Positions 5,984 to 61,040 of a stretch of 61,040 nt of DNA are shown in pieces. The DNA is from Desulfobacteraceae bacterium (lineage in GTDB: Bacteria > Desulfobacterota > Desulfobacteria > Desulfobacterales > Desulfococcaceae). The translations under genes and the position numbers were made by a program. The notes below the pieces were generated by a model that saw only the letters and a program-made list of their open reading frames with translations, had not been told where the DNA came from and did no database searches. The stretch covers positions 1 to 61,040 of the forward strand of contig JBEPWQ010000001.1 in assembly GCA_041642315.1 (NCBI GenBank), in the 5' to 3' direction. Numbering within the stretch: the first letter of the stretch is position 1; each line of letters opens with the position of its first letter.

Positions 5984-6039
5984 AACCGGTTGACAGCGCC
6001 CATGTAAAAAACTAAGGTTCTTATCAAAAGGTAAAATCA

Positions 6040-6120
6040 AGTGTTGGGGGTGCTCTCTGAGGAGGGCTGAGACTTTACCCTTCGAACTTGACCTGGATAA
6101 TACCAGCGAAAGGAAACACT
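6040..6120 (+). promoter_or_regulatory. TPP (THI-box) riboswitch aptamer upstream of thiC
   Basis: ggggtgc...ctgagac...acccttcgaacttgacctggataataccagcgaaaggaa matches the conserved THI element (CUGAGA, ACCUGAUCUGGAUAAUGCCAGCG-like core). The P1 helix is agtgtt 6040-6045 with aacact 6115-6120. Confidence 0.85.
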
Positions 6121-6153
6121 GCAACGGGTCCAAAAAACCCGGCATGCTGATGA

Positions 6154-6280: not shown

Positions 6281-7549
6281 ATGAGTACACTCATTGATGA
6301 ACTCAAAAACGGCGAACGACCGGGGTTTCTATCCCAAATCGCGATACACGAATCGATGGATGAAGAGATCCTGGTCGACCGGGTGCTGGCAGGCCGAATC
6401 GTCATCTGCCGGAACCGCCGGCACCGGTTCGATCCGATCGCCATCGGCGCCGGCACACGCATCAAAGTGAATGCGAATATAGGGACCTCTCCCACCCAAT
6501 GCGATTTCGAAGATGAAATCATCAAGGTGAAAGCGGCTGTGGATGCGGGGGCAGATACGGTGATGGATCTCTCCATCGCCGGAGATATCGGCGGGTTCCG
6601 TCGGCGGGTGACGGAAGCATGCAATGTCACCCTGGGAACGGTTCCCATTTACGAGGCCATGATCGGTCTGACCCATCCATCCGAGCTGACCCTGGATCGA
6701 TTTATGAAGGTGATGCAAAAACAGGCGGAGGAGGGGGTCGATTTCATGACGATCCATTCCGGACTGCTGTGGGAGCATTTGCCGTCCGCGCAAAAGCGGG
6801 TACTGGGCGTGGTCAGCCGGGGCGGTTCCATCATGGTTGCCTGGATGAGGCACCATCGGCGGGAGAGTTTTCTGTACACCCATTTCGACCGGATTCTGGA
6901 AATCGCCCGGGAATATGACATCACCATGTCTTTGGGCGACGGCCTGCGGCCCGGATGTACGGCGGATGCCAACGACGCGGCCCAGTTCGGTGAACTGGAG
7001 GTGCTCGGCGAACTGGTGCAGCGCTGCCGGGATGCCAACGTGCAGGTGATGGTGGAAGGTCCCGGCCATGTGCCGTATCATCTTATCGAGGAAAACGTGC
7101 GGCGGCAAAAAGCGACCTGTCAGGGGGCTCCCTTCTATGTGCTCGGTCCCCTGGTGATGGATTATGCCGCGGGATACGACCACATCGCCGGTGCGATCGG
7201 CGGAGCCCTGGCCGCCTGGTTCGGCGCCGATTTTCTCTGTTATGTGACCCCGGCGGAGCATTTGCGCCTGCCCACGCTTGAAGATGTGCGGGAAGGGGTG
7301 ATCGCCTCGAAAATCGCCGCCGCGGCCGTGGATCTGGCCCGAAACCACCCCCGGGAGATCGAGCGGAATCTGGCCATGTCCAGAGCCCGGGAACGATTCG
7401 ACTGGGAGGGTCAGCAAAACCTGGCCATTGACCCCGCCAAATTCTGCGACTATCTGGAAAAGGTTGATCCGGACGCCGAAGGCGATCCGAACCACGCCTG
7501 TTCCATGTGCGGCGAATGGTGCGCGATCAAGCGGACGAAAAATCGGTGA
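6281..7549 (+). CDS. thiC: Phosphomethylpyrimidine synthase ThiC (short, anaerobe-type form)
   Basis: 422 aa, strongly ThiC-like throughout (VNANIGTS, MDLS, TIHSG, VEGPGHVP, YVLGPLVMD, C-terminal CSMCGEWCAIK cluster motif). It lies directly downstream of the TPP riboswitch. Confidence 0.95.
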   Translation: MSTLIDELKNGERPGFLSQIAIHESMDEEILVDRVLAGRIVICRNRRHRFDPIAIGAGTRIKVNANIGTSPTQCDFEDEIIKVKAAVDAGADTVMDLSIAGDIGGFRRRVTEACNVTLGTVPIYEAMIGLTHPSELTLDRFMKVMQKQAEEGVDFMTIHSGLLWEHLPSAQKRVLGVVSRGGSIMVAWMRHHRRESFLYTHFDRILEIAREYDITMSLGDGLRPGCTADANDAAQFGELEVLGELVQRCRDANVQVMVEGPGHVPYHLIEENVRRQKATCQGAPFYVLGPLVMDYAAGYDHIAGAIGGALAAWFGADFLCYVTPAEHLRLPTLEDVREGVIASKIAAAAVDLARNHPREIERNLAMSRARERFDWEGQQNLAIDPAKFCDYLEKVDPDAEGDPNHACSMCGEWCAIKRTKNR

Positions 7550-33626: not shown

Positions 33627-35087
33627 ATGGATCAGATCGCACCCACAACATTTAAACCCCGTCTTACAGTGCTCAACCGGGAACAGGCGCTGACCATTCA
33701 CACGGCGGCGCTGGAGATTCTCGAACGGACCGGTTTTGAAATTGAACACGAAGGGGTCCTCAACATGCTGCTGGAGGCCGGATGCACTCAGAATGGGGAC
33801 AGCAAGGTCCGGATGCCCGCGTATCTGGTGGAAGAGGCGCTGCGGACAGCGCCCCGCCAGATCACCATGTTCGACCAGCAGGGCGAGCGAACCATGGCCC
33901 TGGTGGACGACAACTTCTATTACGGCACCGGTTCGGATACCATCTTCACCCATGACCTGGAAACGGGTGAGCGCCGCAGAACGGTCCTGGCGGATTCCGG
34001 CAATTTCGCCAAGCTGGTAGACGGTCTCGACAATATGGATTTTTCCATGTCCATGGGCAACCCGGAAGATGTGCCCATCGACGATATCTATGTCCACGTG
34101 TTCGGTGAAATGGTCCGAAGCAGCAACAAGGCGATCTGCTTTATCGCAGACAGCGGCCGGGATATGGAAAAGATCTACCGTATCGCCTGTGCCGTGGCCG
34201 GTGGGGAGGATGAACTGGCGGAGCGGCCTTTTATTCTCAATTATTCCGAGGCTATCAGCCCGCTGCGGTATCCCCGCAATGTGATGGAGAAGCTGGTCTT
34301 CTGTGCCGAAAAGAAGATTCCGATCTGTCTGCCCTCCGGCTGTAACGCGGGCGGCGGCGGCCCGGTGACCCTGGCCGGGGCCATGGCTCTCGGAATTGCG
34401 GAAAACCTGGTGGGGCTGGTCATTCACCAACTGGCCGGCAAGGGCTCCCCCTTCCTCTTTGCGCCCAACGTCAGCATTCTCGATATGAAGTCCACCGTCA
34501 TCTCTTACGGATGCCCCGAATGGGCGCTGACCCAGGCCGCCCTGGCCGACATGCGTGACGAATTATACGGTCTGCCCATCTGGGCCTATGCCGGATCATC
34601 CGATTCCAAGGTCATCGATGCCCAGGCCGGGGCGGAAGCCGCCTTTTCCATTCTGACGGCCATGCAGTCCCGGTGCAACTTCATTCACGATGTAGGATAC
34701 ATCGAGCACGGCAACACCTCCTCTCTGGAGATGGTGACCCTGGCCGACGAGCTGGTGGCCATGAGCCGCCATTTCATGGAAGGCATTCCGGTCAATGAAG
34801 ACACCCTGGCCCTGGATGCCATCGACCGGATCGCCAACGGCACCGGGAATGACATTTTTCTTTCCGATCCCCATACCTTTAAACATTTCAAGGATGCCCA
34901 CTTTCACCCGAAACTGATCGACCGGTTCCGCTATGAAAACTGGGAGAAGAAGGGGTCCATGGACATGTATCAGCGCTGCAATGCAGAGGCAAAACGCATC
35001 TTGAGCGAGCATGAGGTGGTTCCCAAATCCGACGAGGTCATCCGAGAAATCGAAAATATCCTGAACGGAAAGAAAAAAGCCGCCTGA
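33627..35087 (+). CDS. MttB-superfamily methyltransferase, non-pyrrolysine type (quaternary-amine:corrinoid methyltransferase-like)
   Basis: 486 aa uninterrupted (no in-frame TAG). N-terminal LNREQALTIHTAALEILERTGFEI, plus the YGTGSD and SPLRY regions typical of the MttB family. Confidence 0.8.
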   Translation: MDQIAPTTFKPRLTVLNREQALTIHTAALEILERTGFEIEHEGVLNMLLEAGCTQNGDSKVRMPAYLVEEALRTAPRQITMFDQQGERTMALVDDNFYYGTGSDTIFTHDLETGERRRTVLADSGNFAKLVDGLDNMDFSMSMGNPEDVPIDDIYVHVFGEMVRSSNKAICFIADSGRDMEKIYRIACAVAGGEDELAERPFILNYSEAISPLRYPRNVMEKLVFCAEKKIPICLPSGCNAGGGGPVTLAGAMALGIAENLVGLVIHQLAGKGSPFLFAPNVSILDMKSTVISYGCPEWALTQAALADMRDELYGLPIWAYAGSSDSKVIDAQAGAEAAFSILTAMQSRCNFIHDVGYIEHGNTSSLEMVTLADELVAMSRHFMEGIPVNEDTLALDAIDRIANGTGNDIFLSDPHTFKHFKDAHFHPKLIDRFRYENWEKKGSMDMYQRCNAEAKRILSEHEVVPKSDEVIREIENILNGKKKAA

Positions 35088-55733: not shown

Positions 55734-57014
55734 TTAGTCGTCGAAATCCCCTTCCGGTCCTTCCTCCCGGTGAATGGAGACGGCGCGCTGGACGATCTTC
55801 TCCGGTGTCCACTCTGCGGGGTCTTCGATCCGTTTGCCTTTGGGCCCCGGATCATAGCCGCCTGTCTTCAGGATATTTTCGATGGCCAGGGGAGCGGTAT
55901 CTTCTGCGTTGAATACATCCACGATCATGGAATAGGCGAAATCTTCCACCCGTTTGGCCATACGGTCCCGAATCTCTTCGGGCTGGGCCAGGAGCTTGGA
56001 TTCAAAGGGAAGATTCAGTTTTTTGAAGTTGCCGCCGCTCCATCCTTTGGAGTCGGCATAGGCGGTCATCTCATCCCACATGGCCTCGGTGACCCCTTCT
56101 CCTTTGACTTTTCTGAAATTGCCGTCGGCGTCGGTGATAGCGTTGCCGTAGGCGTTGACTTCCACGCCCCAGGAGATCATCTGAAGGGCGGTGGCCACAT
56201 TGGCCTTGGTGGTCCGGGTTTTGCGTGCGATTTCCCGAAGCCGGTCGGAGTGGTTGCCCGAGGTGCCGTGCTGCGCACCGGAAACCTGGTAGGGTTTCAG
56301 GGCTTCATGGATTTCGGCGGTCAGCTCCACCTGAATGCCCTGGTCGCTGGCCTGAATGCCGTGGCTGGTGCCGTTGTTCAAGGCGATCCAGTTGGGATGA
56401 ATGTCATGGGCGTTGAGCCCCTGAATCAGGAACCGGGCCTCATCTACCGTCGAAAGCCCCTGGCTTCCCTTGATTTCGCCCACTTCGGTCTCCAGACCGG
56501 CCCACTCGGGAACCACCTTCTTGATGATGTCGATGCTGGCGAGAAGATTTTGATCGTCGGGCATGTGGGAGGCGTCGATGGCGATGGAGGTGATCCCGGC
56601 ATCGAATAGCGACGGGATTTCCACCTTGGCCGGCTCGATATCCGCCTCTTTTTTGATTCCGAAATGGTCGGCGTGAACCGCCACCGGAATGGTGATGCCG
56701 AGTTCGTTACAGACGGCATCCACCTGACGGGCGATGTTCCACAGGTTGACGGCGCAATACGCGTTGACGCCGCCCTCGGACCGGGCGATCTCCACGATGA
56801 GGGCGGCATTGGCCCGCTGGGCCGCTCTCAGCGCGCCTCGAATGACGAAATGGTTTCGGCCGTTTGCCGCCATGCAGATGGCATGGCCTTTTTCGAGCAT
56901 GGCCAGATCGATGTATTTTCCGCTGACCAGAAGCGCCCTGGAATTGGGAAAGAGTTTGGCGACATTCGGTGTGCGGCCGACCTGCAAGGCTTTTTCAAAA
57001 TCTGACATGGGCAA
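55734..57014 (-). CDS. Class II (metal-dependent) ketose-bisphosphate aldolase family protein, long form
   Basis: 426 aa; AANGRNHF, VAVHADH, and GAQHGTSG-type motifs of class II aldolases. Confidence 0.75.
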   Translation of the reverse strand: MPMSDFEKALQVGRTPNVAKLFPNSRALLVSGKYIDLAMLEKGHAICMAANGRNHFVIRGALRAAQRANAALIVEIARSEGGVNAYCAVNLWNIARQVDAVCNELGITIPVAVHADHFGIKKEADIEPAKVEIPSLFDAGITSIAIDASHMPDDQNLLASIDIIKKVVPEWAGLETEVGEIKGSQGLSTVDEARFLIQGLNAHDIHPNWIALNNGTSHGIQASDQGIQVELTAEIHEALKPYQVSGAQHGTSGNHSDRLREIARKTRTTKANVATALQMISWGVEVNAYGNAITDADGNFRKVKGEGVTEAMWDEMTAYADSKGWSGGNFKKLNLPFESKLLAQPEEIRDRMAKRVEDFAYSMIVDVFNAEDTAPLAIENILKTGGYDPGPKGKRIEDPAEWTPEKIVQRAVSIHREEGPEGDFDD

Positions 57015-57179
57015 CCTCCTTTTCCGTTTCGCGGATAAGAATTCCGTTGGGTTCCGGTGCGCCGGTTTCTTTTTGACAATTCTGCATTACCATATAGGTT
57101 ATGAATGGTGATTTCAAGGAGAGTTTACGGTGGATACGAGGTTTTTCCGAACAAAAGATCACAAAACGGAGGTGCATGG

Positions 57180-58232
57180 ATGACAGATAAAATTGCAGAA
57201 TTACTGGGAGATGAGGCGGATCGTTTGTTGAACCATGATTGCCGGACGATCCCAAAGAAGATGCTCTACCTGCCGGGTCCCGACTTCGTGGATCGGGTGG
57301 TTTCCCAGAGCGACCGAACGGTGCCGGTGCTGCGGTCCATTCAGACCCTGTTCGATCACGGCCGCCTGGCCGGAACCGGGTATGTTTCGATTTTGCCGGT
57401 GGATCAGGGGATCGAGCACTCCGCCGGGGCTTCTTTCGCGCCCAATCCGATCTATTTCGATCCCGAAAACATCATCAAATTGGCCATCGAGGGCGGCTGC
57501 AATGCGGCCGCCTCCACCCTGGGCGTGCTGGGTTCGGTGGCCCGAAAATATGCCCATAAGATCCCCTTCATTCTGAAGATGAACCACAATGAACTGCTGA
57601 GCTATCCCAACTCCTATGATCAGATCCTGTTCGCCGACGTGGATCAGGCGTTTGAACTGGGGGCGGTGGCGGTGGGTGCCACCATCTATTACGGTTCCGA
57701 GGAGAGCAACCGTCAGATACAGGAGATCACGGAAATCTTCCGATATGCCCACAGCCTGGGAATGGCCACCATTTTGTGGGCCTATCTGCGAAATTCCGCG
57801 TTCAAAGCGGATAAAGACTATGCGGTTTCCGCCGACCTGACCGGCCAGGCCAATCACCTGGCGGCCACCATTGAGGCGGATATCGTCAAGCAGAAACAGG
57901 CGGTCAACAACGGCGGCTACAAAGCCGTGGATTTCGGCAAGACCCACCCCAAGGTCTATGAGGACCTGACCAGCGATCATCCCATCGATCTTACCCGCTA
58001 TCAGGTAGTCAATTGCTACATGGGGCGGGCCGGGCTGATCAATTCCGGCGGATCTTTTGCCGGGGAGAACGACTTGGCCCAGGCGGTGCGGACCGCGGTG
58101 ATCAACAAGCGGGCCGGAGGAATGGGATTGATCTCCGGTCGAAAGGCGTTTCAGAGACCCATGGAAGAAGGGGTGCGGCTCCTCAACACCATTCAGGACG
58201 TCTATTTAGACGAGCGCATCACCGTCGCCTGA
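57180..58232 (+). CDS. fbaB: Class I fructose-bisphosphate aldolase FbaB (DhnA type)
   Basis: Collinear with my recollection of E. coli FbaB from MTD..ELLG..AD.LL.H.C.TIP through [52 protein letters not shown], to VQDVYLD..IT.A. Confidence 0.95.
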
Positions 58233-58508
58233 TCCTTCGCCGATCTCCTGGGATCTCAGATCGGTGAGGATGTCGATGATCCGGGCCCGGAAGCTTTCCG
58301 GAGCCCGGATCTCTCCCCATCCCTTTTGGGATTGAAACAGTCCGTCATAGGCGGTGTCGTGGTATGAGCGGATCAGATGCGGTACCGATTCCTCCTCCAG
58401 GACGGGGCCGACCAGTTGGGCTTCAAAGGGATCTTCCAGGACGGCGATTTTAATAAATTCCGTGGTTTCATGATCCTGATTCGGCGGATTTTCGGGTGGT
58501 TCACTCAT
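58206..58508 (-). CDS. DUF2007-like small protein (putative signal-transducing fold)
   Basis: 100 aa. The core [29 protein letters not shown] resembles DUF2007. Its 3' end overlaps the fbaB 3' end by 27 nt (convergent). Confidence 0.55.
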
Positions 58509-59262
58509 GGTTTTTTCTCTCCTCGTAATCTACCTGCATCAAATAAAGGCCGTGGGGCGGCGCGGTGGCACCGGCCCGCCCCCGGTCTCCGGAAGTCAGA
58601 ATGTTTTGGAACTCCAAAACAGTAGTTTTCCCGGACCCCACATCCACCAGGGTGCCCACGATATTCCGGACCATGTAGCGCAGAAAGCCGTCGGCGCTCA
58701 CCTGAAAGGTCACCAATCCTTCCGGGCCCCGAGCGATTTCCGATTGGAAAATTCGGCGCCGGGTGTGGGCGCGCGGGCTTCCGGCCCCCTCAAAGGCTTT
58801 GAAATCGTGTTCCCCTGAAAGACAAGCGGCAGCTTCCGCCATGGCCGCCAGATTCAATGGGAGGCGGATATGCCAGACATAGAGGCGTTCAAGGGCCGAG
58901 GGCAGAGGCCGGTTGCGGATCCGGTAATGATAGGTCTTTCTGTGTACATCGAATCGGGCATGAAAGGCCGGGTTCACTTCCCGGCAGTTTCGAATAACGA
59001 TATCCGCATCCAGAAGGCTGTTGAGACCTTTCTGGAAAACATCCGGAGAAAGACGGGTCTCGCATTTAAAATGGGCGGTCTGGCCATATGCATGCACCCC
59101 CGCATCCGTGCGGCCGGAGCCGTTCAGAACGATTTTTCGGCCGGTCATGGTCTCCAAAGCCCGTTCGATCTCTCCCTGCAGGGTTCGGTCTCCCTTTTGC
59201 CGCTGCCAGCCGTGATACCGGGTCCCGTCGTATTCGATGGTGAGTTTGAAGGTTCGAATCAT
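58501..59262 (-). CDS. truA: tRNA pseudouridine(38-40) synthase TruA
   Basis: IEYDGTRYHGWQRQ, SGRTDAGVHA (catalytic Asp), FLRYMVRNIVG. Confidence 0.95.
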   Translation of the reverse strand: MIRTFKLTIEYDGTRYHGWQRQKGDRTLQGEIERALETMTGRKIVLNGSGRTDAGVHAYGQTAHFKCETRLSPDVFQKGLNSLLDADIVIRNCREVNPAFHARFDVHRKTYHYRIRNRPLPSALERLYVWHIRLPLNLAAMAEAAACLSGEHDFKAFEGAGSPRAHTRRRIFQSEIARGPEGLVTFQVSADGFLRYMVRNIVGTLVDVGSGKTTVLEFQNILTSGDRGRAGATAPPHGLYLMQVDYEERKNHE

Positions 59263-59272
59263 GCAGAACGCC

Positions 59273-60187
59273 TTACATCAACAGGGCCACCGACAATGAC
59301 AGGAAAGAGAGCAGGGTCGAGAGCACAATCGCGGAGGATGCCAGGTCCGTATTGCTGTTCAATTGAGATGAGAGTACATAAATGGCGGTGGATGTCGGAA
59401 GGCAAAAGAAGATCAAGCCGACCTTGAAGGGGATTCCGGTGACATGGAACAGTTTCAAAAATCCGTAACCGACAAGCGGAAATACCAGCAACTTGAATGT
59501 AGCCGCAACCAAGGAGAGATTCATATAACCCTTCAGGTTGGTGAAAGTCAGAACCCCGCCGATGGAGAGCAGCGCCAGCGGCAGTGTCACCGAGGTGGTG
59601 AGTCGAAGGGTATTGTCGATAAAGCGGGGAAAGGTGTTGATCAGGCGGGCGTAGAAAATCCCCGACAGACAGGCGATGATCAGGGGATTTGAAACCAGGG
59701 CCTTGAGGGTCAGTCGGCTCCGCTCCCTGATGGAGAATCGCTTTCCGGAATACCAGATGAGGGTGGAAACGGCCAGGACATTGATGAGCGGAATCGCGAA
59801 CCCGACCATGATTCCGAACTGCCGGACTCCCTCTTCCCCCACCGCGTTGATGATAATGGCCATGCCGATGTATGTGTTGAAGCGATAACAGCTCTGGGAA
59901 AAAGATCCGGCTTCGTAATCCGACACGGCAAAACGGATATACAGGCTGCTCAGGAGATACAGGACAATAATTGCGCTGAGAGCGGCCAGGCAGAAGTTCC
60001 AGTCGATGCCGCCGTCGGATTCGGCGCCGCCGATCTTCCAGAAGAGCATGGCCGGAAAAAAGATGAAATAGACCAGCCGGTCGGAGGTCTTGAGAAAGCG
60101 GTCATTGGTCAGGTTGAAATGCTTGAGGCACCTGCCCAGGACGATGAGTGCGAATACCGGGAACAGCCCGTTGAGGACCATCATCAT
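59273..60187 (-). CDS. AEC (auxin efflux carrier) family transporter
   Basis: 304 aa, about 10 TM. The overall pattern of the Mem_trans family (N- and C-terminal 5-TM halves). Confidence 0.8.
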   Translation of the reverse strand: MMMVLNGLFPVFALIVLGRCLKHFNLTNDRFLKTSDRLVYFIFFPAMLFWKIGGAESDGGIDWNFCLAALSAIIVLYLLSSLYIRFAVSDYEAGSFSQSCYRFNTYIGMAIIINAVGEEGVRQFGIMVGFAIPLINVLAVSTLIWYSGKRFSIRERSRLTLKALVSNPLIIACLSGIFYARLINTFPRFIDNTLRLTTSVTLPLALLSIGGVLTFTNLKGYMNLSLVAATFKLLVFPLVGYGFLKLFHVTGIPFKVGLIFFCLPTSTAIYVLSSQLNSNTDLASSAIVLSTLLSFLSLSVALLM

Positions 60188-60193
60188 GGCGGA

Positions 60194-60400
60194 TTACAGC
60201 CGGTCGCACCGCACATCGGCCAGTTCCTCCTCCAGCTCATTATCCATGGCGTCTTTGAAGCGATTCATTGGAAATCGGGCGTTGCAGGACCTGCAACGGA
60301 GGTCTGTCCGCCGTCAGGATCGAAACAGGTTGAGAGGCCCGCCGCAGTCGGGGCATCGCCTTTGGTTCGCTCTGCCGAAATGGAACGGATGTAAAGCCAT
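60194..60400 (-). CDS. Candidate 68-aa zinc-ribbon protein with one in-frame TGA (possible selenocysteine at codon 29), or a disrupted small gene
   Basis: Checked codon by codon by hand: ATG 60400, TGA 60316-60314, TAA 60196-60194. Product MALHPFHFGRANQRRCPDCGGPLNLFRS-X-RRTDLRCRSCNARFPMNRFKDAMDNELEEELADVRCDRL. AGGGAGA precedes the ATG. It ends 6 nt before the AEC transporter start. Confidence 0.4.
60280..60298 (-). promoter_or_regulatory. SECIS-like hairpin 15 nt downstream of the in-frame UGA
   Basis: mRNA CGUUGCA-GGUCC-UGCAACG (7-bp stem). The upper stem and GGUC loop resemble the E. coli fdhF SECIS minihelix as I recall it. Confidence 0.35.
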
Positions 60401-60648
60401 GGTTCTCCCTTGAGGATTGACTCGTATTTTAATTCAAAGAAAAAGGCCGTCCATCGGTATCCACCTTCGGGATTCGAAAATTCTGCGATGATTTTCGTGA
60501 GATCGGCCGCCGAACCGATTGACAAGGACTCGGTATTCTGTCAAATGAGTCCCCCAAGGTGAATGATCGAAAAAATGGACATCGTTCATATGTTTTTATT
60601 ATATCGCCCTCACGGATACATGTCAAAAGATATACGGAAAAGAGTCAT

Positions 60649-61040
60649 ATGAAACCAATCACGTGCAAGGGATTTAAGGCCGCGGGCATCGCTTCGGGGC
60701 TGAAAAAAAACGGGGCCAAAGATCTGGGGTTGATCTATTCGGAAACCCCGGCGAACGCGGCCGGGGTATTTACTCGAAACCTGGTGCGGGCCGCGCCGGT
60801 TCTGCTGGACCAGGAACGGCTCAAGGGCGGAAAATGCCAGGCGGTGATCGCCAACAGCGGCAACGCCAATTGCTGCACCGGAGAAAAGGGCATGACCGAC
60901 GCCGTGGCCATGACCCATGCCGCGGGGGCCGCATTGCAGACATCCGAAGAACTGGTCTGTGTCGCCTCTACCGGGGTGATCGGCCAGCCTTTGAACATCC
61001 AGAAAGTGGAGGAGGCGGTGCCGGAACTGGTGAAGGCCCT
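60649..61040 (+). CDS. argJ: Bifunctional glutamate N-acetyltransferase/amino-acid acetyltransferase ArgJ, 5' part (runs off the right edge)
   Basis: Hand translation gives MKPITCKGFKAAGIASGLKKNGAKDLGLIYSETPANAAGVFTRNLVRAAPVLLDQERL...AVIANSGNANCCTGEKG...STGVIGQPL, the typical ArgJ N-terminus. It is not in the ORF track because no stop lies in the window. Confidence 0.85.
   Translation, partial: MKPITCKGFKAAGIASGLKKNGAKDLGLIYSETPANAAGVFTRNLVRAAPVLLDQERLKGGKCQAVIANSGNANCCTGEKGMTDAVAMTHAAGAALQTSEELVCVASTGVIGQPLNIQKVEEAVPELVKA

Follow-up and report, generated by a model that had tools for sequence, protein, structure and literature searches.

The small selenoprotein family OS_HP3 was first predicted, as a family new at the time, from two symbionts of Olavius algarvensis, delta-1 and delta-4, in a report whose Fig. 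5E shows its selenocysteine insertion sequence (SECIS) (PMC1976440). A 2026 review, which cites Zhang & Gladyshev 2007, lists OS_HP3 as a selenoprotein family with the motif RxU (PMC13188914). Described here is a small open reading frame (ORF) with a single in-frame TGA on the minus strand of a 61,040-nt stretch of contig JBEPWQ010000001.1 from a Desulfobacteraceae bacterium; this whole stretch of DNA is referred to below as the window. Judged from sequence comparisons, the small ORF is very probably a genuine selenoprotein gene, an orthologue of NF041197/OS_HP3 in which the UGA at codon 29 is read as selenocysteine (Sec).

According to the same review, bacterial Sec insertion proceeds through the binding of SelB-GTP-Sec-tRNA(Sec) to a hairpin, which delivers Sec to the UGA (PMC13188914). 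The bacterial SECIS model given in its Fig. 2 legend has a loop of 3-9 nt, a stem of 4-16 bp and G at the first two loop positions, and further asks for a UGA-to-loop distance of 16-37 nt and a folding energy of -7.5 kcal/mol or lower (PMC13188914).

Small ORF and family identity

The small ORF occupies 60400-60194 of the minus strand, a frame of 69 codons made up of 68 codons and a stop. It begins with ATG at 60400-60398 and terminates with TAA at 60196-60194, and the only in-frame stop inside it is the TGA at 60316-60314, which is codon 29. The read-through product is MALHPFHFGRANQRRCPDCGGPLNLFRS*RRTDLRCRSCNARFPMNRFKDAMDNELEEELADVRCDRL (68 aa, where the asterisk stands for the TGA codon). 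The features of the gene, all on the minus strand, are as follows.

60194-60400, minus strand: predicted coding sequence of a dual-CXXC selenoprotein, 68 aa, based on the NF041197 match, the HMMER relatives and the third-position variation
60404-60410, minus strand: Shine-Dalgarno-like AGGGAGA, 3 nt 5' of the ATG, read from the sequence
60344-60355, minus strand: first CXXC knuckle, CPDC, codons 16-19, with Cys in 42/42 sequences covering these columns
60314-60316, minus strand: predicted Sec codon TGA, codon 29, motif R27-S28-U29, with TGA kept in loci L001-L017
60284-60295, minus strand: second CXXC knuckle, CRSC, codons 36-39, with invariant Cys in 55/55 sequences
60280-60298, minus strand: SECIS-like hairpin CGUUGCA-GGUCC-UGCAACG, beginning 15 nt after the UGA and overlapping the second CXXC knuckle

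An earlier inspection of the window (the original prediction) had described the frame, its ATG, the AGGGAGA, the single TGA, the CPDC and CRSC motifs, the hairpin and a 6-nt gap to an auxin efflux carrier (AEC) transporter gene, and each of these is found exactly where it had been placed.

With Cys written at codon 29, the product scores 71.3 bits against the NCBIfam equivalog model NF041197 (CxxC_Se_CxxC, 'dual CXXC motif small (seleno)protein'), for which the cut-off is set at 40 bits, and the match spans model positions 1-53 of 53. Because of this match, and because R27-S28-U29 fits the RxU motif, the small ORF is assigned by sequence as an orthologue of a described and curated selenoprotein family, NF041197 being the same family as OS_HP3. 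The window gene agrees with that family in the full-length match, in its length (68 aa in a range of about 55-75 aa), in the two CXXC motifs, in the sharing of one column by Sec and Cys, in a predicted SECIS immediately downstream of the UGA and in the Desulfobacterota-type host; no essential difference was found. The original prediction had proposed a candidate unannotated selenoprotein. Its assignment as a selenoprotein is borne out by the Sec/Cys pair and the SECIS discussed below, but the claim of novelty is not, as NF041197/OS_HP3 was already predicted in 2007 (PMC1976440). The window gene is an already known kind of selenoprotein, and its novelty is low; the biological gain is small because the family, the Sec position and the SECIS had already been predicted and curated. 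The reservation that the putative Sec lies outside a CxxU-type motif falls away, the motif listed for the family being RxU (PMC13188914).

HMMER, applied exhaustively to 1.84 billion representatives, returned 69 matches. The proteins of this family are 55-73 aa long and have Cys at positions 16, 19, 36 and 39 wherever these are covered. R27, D53, E57, D66 and R67 are nearly invariant, and the C-terminus reads (C)DR[LIV]. At position 29, 31 of the relatives have Cys and 10 have 'W', while 12 matches are fragments of 35-44 aa that begin just 3' of this position. Arg27 is present in 40/43 sequences. Residue 29 of the family is encoded by nothing but Cys codons or TGA.

Conservation of the TGA codon and of the downstream frame

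A word-indexed protein search found a single relative, P0001, which is 82% identical, carries 'W' at codon 29 and scores 66.5 bits on NF041197. Its four source contigs (L001-L004, one JGI metagenome lineage) all have TGA at this codon. A scan of species-representative genomes added four loci (L005-L008) from metagenome-assembled genomes of Desulfobacterales, Desulfobacteraceae and Desulfococcaceae, and codon 29 is TGA in all of them. The TGA is kept, then, in five other close lineages, the JGI lineage and the four metagenome-assembled genomes, at an amino-acid identity of 76-84%. The Shine-Dalgarno-like motif is likewise retained, as AAGGGAGAACC-ATG or AAGAGGGAACC-ATG, in L001 and L005-L008.

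Across codons 30-68 of the six close lineages, 13 third, 1 second and 5 first positions are variable, and the pairwise codon differences comprise 75 synonymous versus 43 nonsynonymous changes. Because the substitutions fall mainly at third codon positions, the frame 3' of the TGA is judged to be translated and under purifying selection, which agrees with the continued coding character that the original prediction had noted on this side of the TGA.

Metagenomes were scanned with a hand-built degenerate DNA pattern derived from conserved positions (C36, C39, Y/F43, D53, D/E54, E57, D/N66, R67, residue 68 and the stop) and blind to codon 29 and to codons 37-38, which encode the loop. The scan gave at least 120 stretches, so the family is abundant in metagenomes, an abundance that counts as a modestly new point; the counts of Sec forms (TGA at codon 29) and Cys forms (TGC or TGT) given below refer to the matches listed. 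All 120 matches listed are family members. The original prediction had foreseen homologues with Cys or TGA at codon 29 if the gene were real, and homologous loci that stop there, or lack conservation of the downstream frame or the hairpin, if it were not. The former were found: codon 29 is TGA in 89 matches, TGC or TGT in 30 and cut by a contig end in 1, with no other codon in any, and the TGA, the frame and the hairpin are all kept. Deduplication left 86 distinct Sec forms and 22 Cys forms.

These counts bear on the possibility, which the original prediction had treated as a real alternative, that the TGA is a recent nonsense mutation in a pseudogene or a Cys or Trp codon miscalled through a sequencing or assembly error. 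Such an origin would take little, as TGA is one base from TGC, TGT or TGG, and the lack of sel genes in the window would fit it. However, contigs of at least five other close lineages, each assembled independently, carry the same TGA, as do the 89 metagenomic homologues. The frame 3' of it appears to be under purifying selection, and a Sec-specific hairpin accompanies it. The probability of a pseudogene or an error is regarded as virtually negligible.

The UGA might also be decoded without Sec, either through near-cognate Trp read-through at a leaky UGA-C or through a genome-wide reassignment of TGA. In E. coli, a UGA followed by C terminates translation weakly, and a C follows the UGA both in the window and in 54/86 Sec forms. 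Public protein sets do give W at codon 29, where it stems from a JGI gene caller: all 9 'W' proteins with retrieved DNA have TGA there, as does the one fragment checked. The family members themselves argue otherwise, as none of the 119 listed has TGG at codon 29 and Cys is the only alternative to TGA. TGA terminates 34/62 long ORFs in the window, more than half of them, and therefore the genome does not use a TGA-reassigned code. Moreover, simple read-through has no need of a conserved hairpin with a SelB-type G-rich loop. Decoding of the UGA by anything other than Sec is very improbable.

In public protein collections the family members appear either with a W in place of the TGA codon (JGI calls) or as C-terminal fragments of 35-44 aa (P0001-P0063; L001-L017). 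Sec forms are under-represented in protein databases because their entries are mistranslated or fragmentary. The statement in the original prediction that no ORF caller would report this gene is correct for ab initio callers, which yield W or fragments of 35-37 aa, but probably fails for the NCBI pipeline, in which proteins are named with NCBIfam models. As this case confirms, a genuine selenoprotein gene that is broken or mistranslated by ab initio callers can be spotted from the sequence alone.

Hairpin downstream of the UGA

In the SECIS-like hairpin the 5' arm is formed by 60298-60292 (CGUUGCA), the loop by 60291-60287 (GGUCC) and the 3' arm by 60286-60280 (UGCAACG). The CRSC codons TGC-AGG-TCC-TGC constitute its upper stem and loop. 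All values of the hairpin lie within the bacterial SECIS model quoted above, with a stem of 7-8 bp, the loop GGUCC (or GUC), a distance of 22-23 nt from the UGA and a folding energy of -9.8 kcal/mol. This energy, calculated for the isolated hairpin, corresponds to z = -4.05, and 0/200 shuffles fold as well.

Comparison of 12 diverse Sec forms showed the hairpin in the same register in all 12. For 8 tested pairs, 88.5% of the cells are paired, a share that drops to 22-57% with a slid partner. At pair 21-35, these sequences show C-G in 5 cases, U-A in 5 and U-G in 2; at pair 19-37, C-G occurs in 8, U-A in 2 and U-G in 1.

Sec and Cys forms differ in this region. Of 7 core pairs in the register of the window hairpin, 6-7 are formed in 72/86 Sec forms, and the median for the Cys forms is 5. 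The mean local folding energy is -10.3 kcal/mol for Sec forms versus -4.7 kcal/mol for Cys forms (Mann-Whitney p = 9e-10, although p-values of this kind overstate independence because Sec and Cys sequences are phylogenetically related, a point that tells against the reading as a selenoprotein gene). The first two loop positions are G in 86/86 Sec forms and in 9/22 Cys forms, and the full loop GGUCN is present in 47/86 and 0/22, respectively. The third base of codon 37 is G in 86/86 Sec forms but in only 8/22 Cys forms; Arg37 is encoded by AGG in 56 Sec forms and by CGG in 4, whereas the Cys forms mostly have CCN. The second knuckle reads CRSC in 43/86 Sec forms and in 0/22 Cys forms. A strict perfect-stem SECIS model is passed by 56/86 Sec forms (at 22-23 nt) versus 2/22 Cys forms (at 34-36 nt).

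The Cys forms are not one clade, because the nearest relatives of L032, of L044, of the L051/L075/L092 group and of L105 outside their own groups are Sec forms, at 52-63% identity. Each of these Cys lineages is without the loop G's that its Sec neighbour retains, which amounts to at least four independent contrasts.

A hairpin at this place could be a by-product of C-x-x-C coding, since the two TGC codons are each followed by A and TGC-A...TGC-A is self-complementary by construction. The UGA would then terminate translation to leave a 28-aa peptide, and the 3' half would be either separately started or an untranslated remnant. Part of the stem (TGC...TGC) is indeed supplied free by the two Cys codons, and Cys forms still make a median of 5/7 pairs. 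In RNA contexts of 54-76 nt the overall fold is unexceptional (z = -0.5 to -1.3), and at 76 nt a competing pairing takes the place of the hairpin in the minimum-energy structure. Against a coding by-product, the Cys forms mostly lack the loop G's, are about 5.6 kcal/mol less stable and have CCN, not AGG, at codon 37. In addition, the window and 56/86 Sec forms encode Arg37 with AGG, which is the rarest Arg codon in the window (83/1587). A separate start finds no support in the window, where neither a start codon nor a ribosome-binding site lies right 3' of the TGA, and both halves together match one curated 53-position model. This explanation is considered highly unlikely. Because of the Sec-specific loop G's, the stability and the at least four independent Sec/Cys contrasts, the comparison indicates that the hairpin is more than a by-product of two TGC codons, namely an RNA signal tied to the TGA.

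The SECIS embedded in the second zinc knuckle seems to fix the Sec-form sequence as C-R-S-C (AGG-UCN), while the Cys forms drift to C-P-x-C. Within the available text of the literature on the family (PMC1976440, PMC13188914), no statement of this overlap and of its imprint on the protein was found, which makes it modestly new. It offers a clean natural example of an RNA signal that constrains a metal-binding motif.

Comparison with the E. coli fdhF element

The original prediction had likened the hairpin to the E. coli fdhF SECIS minihelix and had placed it about 4 nt further from the UGA. The fdhF element that it gave proved correct: TGA-CACGGCCCATC-GGTTGCAGGTCTGCACC corresponds to fdhF at an identity of at least 99% in 5,413 E. 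coli genome records. The fdhF minihelix, GGUUGCAGGUCUGCACC, begins 11 nt after the UGA, in contrast to 15 nt in the window, which confirms the spacing longer by 4 nt. The two share the 10-mer GUUGCAGGUC (DNA: GTTGCAGGTC) followed by UGCA. They have in common the upper stem UGCA/UGCA, the loop start GGUC and a location inside the coding region just 3' of the UGA.

The fdhF-type SECIS has a bulged U below the upper stem. The U that is bulged in fdhF is paired with A in the window hairpin, whose loop, in place of GGUC, reads GGUCC or forms a GUC triloop with a closing G-C pair. By its 5-nt loop, its paired U and its 15-nt spacing the window hairpin falls outside the fdhF type. The reading frame and the encoded amino acids differ between the two, so that the likeness is one of RNA and not of gene homology. 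By this analogy the window hairpin may work like the fdhF element without being a copy of it.

Proposed mechanism of selenocysteine insertion

In the proposed mechanism, the mRNA would be translated from the AUG at 60400 until the ribosome reaches the UGA at 60316-60314. There the hairpin at 60298-60280, 15 nt on, would act as a bacterial SECIS, and its upper stem (UGCA/UGCA) and G-rich loop (GGUCC) would recruit SelB-GTP-Sec-tRNA(Sec). Sec would be inserted as residue 29, and translation would run on to the UAA at 60196-60194. The predicted product is a zinc-ribbon protein of 68 residues, in which the knuckles C16/C19 and C36/C39 would hold a metal. Sec29 would follow the almost invariant Arg27 and lie in the turn between two β-strands that join the knuckles; an acidic helix and the C-terminal (C)DRL would come after them. 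From these comparisons we infer the SelB dependence, the metal binding and the role of Sec.

Several observations weigh against this interpretation, among them the folding of the longer RNA contexts and the pairs contributed by the two Cys codons, both described above. A search with the Rfam covariance models (4227 families) gave no match in 60100-60500 at E <= 10; the only gathering-level Rfam match in the whole window is a riboswitch. No selA, selB or selD was found among the 36 largest ORFs annotated in the 61-kb window, and its sole tRNA is a tRNA-Leu, with no tRNA-Sec (selC). When the window was searched for further genes interrupted by one TGA, only off-frame noise and the small ORF came up. 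Because there is no second TGA-split gene, the window provides no independent proof of Sec decoding. The AlphaFold2 model of the product, described below, is of low confidence. Finally, the available text of the literature on the family yielded no experimental proof of selenium incorporation for any member. Desulfobacterota are described as rich in selenoproteins (PMC1976440, PMC13188914), and it is from this literature, together with the conserved element, that we infer Sec decoding in the organism.

Predicted zinc ribbon fold and distant relatives

No Pfam family matches the window protein at its own threshold. The top match is PF07191 (Zn_ribbon_6), with 22.9 bits versus a gathering threshold of 25 and E = 8.9e-5. 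Among solved structures, profile comparison places the YfgJ-type double zinc ribbon (PDB 2jrp and 2jne; PF07191) first, with E = 5.6e-5 for 2jrp. The alignment covers the CxxC, a Cys opposite Sec29, and C36. In contrast to the window protein, YfgJ has two ribbons and is without the C39 partner, the acidic helix and the CDRL tail. No Sec forms of YfgJ-type ribbons are known to us. In the YfgJ-type ribbon, the Cys at the equivalent position goes together with the loss of the fourth knuckle Cys. Our best guess is that Sec29 is a redox-active or an extra metal-ligating residue.

The zinc domain of HypA, a hydrogenase nickel metallochaperone (PDB 3a43), gives a weak profile match (E = 2.5e-4) that runs from the second CXXC through the acidic helix. 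About 34 residues align, the family-level scores are far under the cut-offs, and the nickel-binding N-terminal domain of HypA is absent from the window protein. Weak NCBIfam HypA matches recur among family members. This likeness is taken as a lead on metal handling and not as evidence of membership.

The AlphaFold2 model, calculated from a 55-sequence alignment, has a pLDDT (predicted local distance difference test score) of 60.9. At this low confidence it has three strands (22-27, 32-36, 42-44) and one helix (49-60), and Sec29 falls in the turn that joins the first strand to the second. Foldseek comparison with the PDB returned only generic zinc-ribbon matches, none with E < 0.4.

Gene neighbourhood

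The small ORF is divergent from argJ, which lies on the plus strand and starts at 60649. The features around it, given as context, are as follows.

59273-60187, minus strand: AEC (auxin efflux carrier / Mem_trans) transporter gene, starting 6 nt after the TAA of the small ORF
58501-59262, minus strand: truA (tRNA pseudouridine 38-40 synthase), TIGR00071 199 bits versus a cut-off of 143
60598-60626, minus strand: sigma-70 promoter-like site TTGACA-17-TATAAT, 12/12 consensus, about 200 nt 5' of the ATG, from a consensus scan only

The order ArgJ, small ORF, AEC, TruA recurs on the L001-L004 contigs. Among Sec-form loci with enough flanking DNA, TruA is the most frequent co-directional neighbour, being downstream on the same strand in 35/60 (40-85% protein identity); AEC holds such a position in 24/60, and a divergent ArgJ is found upstream in 34/52. 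TruA or AEC is directly downstream in about half of the Sec forms, and elsewhere the downstream genes are diverse (aminotransferase, YcaO-TPR, HGD-D and others) or missing. Among the Cys forms, TruA, ArgJ and AEC are each near one only. Judged by these gene orders, the neighbourhood looks like lineage synteny and not like a function-defining operon. Cys forms were also found in human gut metagenome contigs (L029, L036, L040 and others), where they are mostly solitary, with no co-directional downstream gene.

The sigma-70-like site in the intergenic region between the divergent argJ and the small ORF is a possible promoter of the small-ORF operon, a candidate put forward from its sequence. Transcripts started there would carry a leader of about 190 nt, about 85 nt of which are absent from the orthologous loci L001-L004.

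The arrangement raises the possibility of a gene that does encode Sec yet serves chiefly as a translational gate dependent on selenium, such that AEC and, by polarity, truA need read-through of the UGA. The spacer to AEC is just 6 nt, and the AEC start (60185-60196 region) has three consecutive ATGs and no obvious Shine-Dalgarno sequence. The presence of AEC or TruA directly downstream in about half of the Sec forms, and almost never in Cys forms, would be in keeping with such a gate. Also in its favour, polarity at a Sec codon is reported to depend on selenium in the case of Treponema primitia fdhF (PMC3892789). However, the protein is conserved end to end, in free-standing Cys forms as well, which argues that the protein itself is functional and that the gene is more than a leader. 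Moreover, unrelated genes or none lie downstream of many Sec forms. A role mainly as a gate appears unlikely.

Weak matches to the Trm112 profile recur for the family. In L095 the Sec-form gene overlaps by 4 nt a gene for an S4 + PseudoU_synth_2 (RsuA/RluB-type) pseudouridine synthase, and in L019 (153-792) an archease gene follows a Cys form. These two loci and the frequent presence of truA nearby give hints, at the level of gene order, of a link to RNA modification. Going further, the small Sec protein might be a Trm112-like zinc-ribbon accessory or a redox-sensing partner of the co-transcribed TruA, with the UGA making the expression of AEC and truA dependent on selenium; this combined proposal is a long shot. 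Most Cys forms stand alone, which counts against an obligatory partnership with TruA.

Other features of the window

A 100-aa ORF that follows truA (58206-58508, minus strand) has no Pfam or NCBIfam match, and an ORF of similar size (98-100 aa) is located at the same place in L001, L002 and L009. Further along, a class I fructose-bisphosphate aldolase gene (660 bits versus a cut-off of 327) adjoins a divergent class II aldolase-like gene, the pair occupying 55734-57014 (minus strand) and 57105-58232 (plus strand). The class II-like gene scores far below every class II cut-off. The same aldolase pair is found near the small gene in L009.

The riboswitch mentioned above is a thiamine pyrophosphate (TPP) riboswitch at 6036-6131 (plus strand, 67.1 bits), located upstream of thiC at 6281-7549 (plus strand), an ordinary arrangement. 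An MttB-superfamily ORF of 486 aa at 33627-35087 (plus strand) scores 371.7 bits against TIGR02369 (trimethylamine methyltransferase), under the cut-off of 525. It contains no in-frame TAG and so resembles an MttB homologue free of pyrrolysine; the lineage is known to use both Sec and pyrrolysine.

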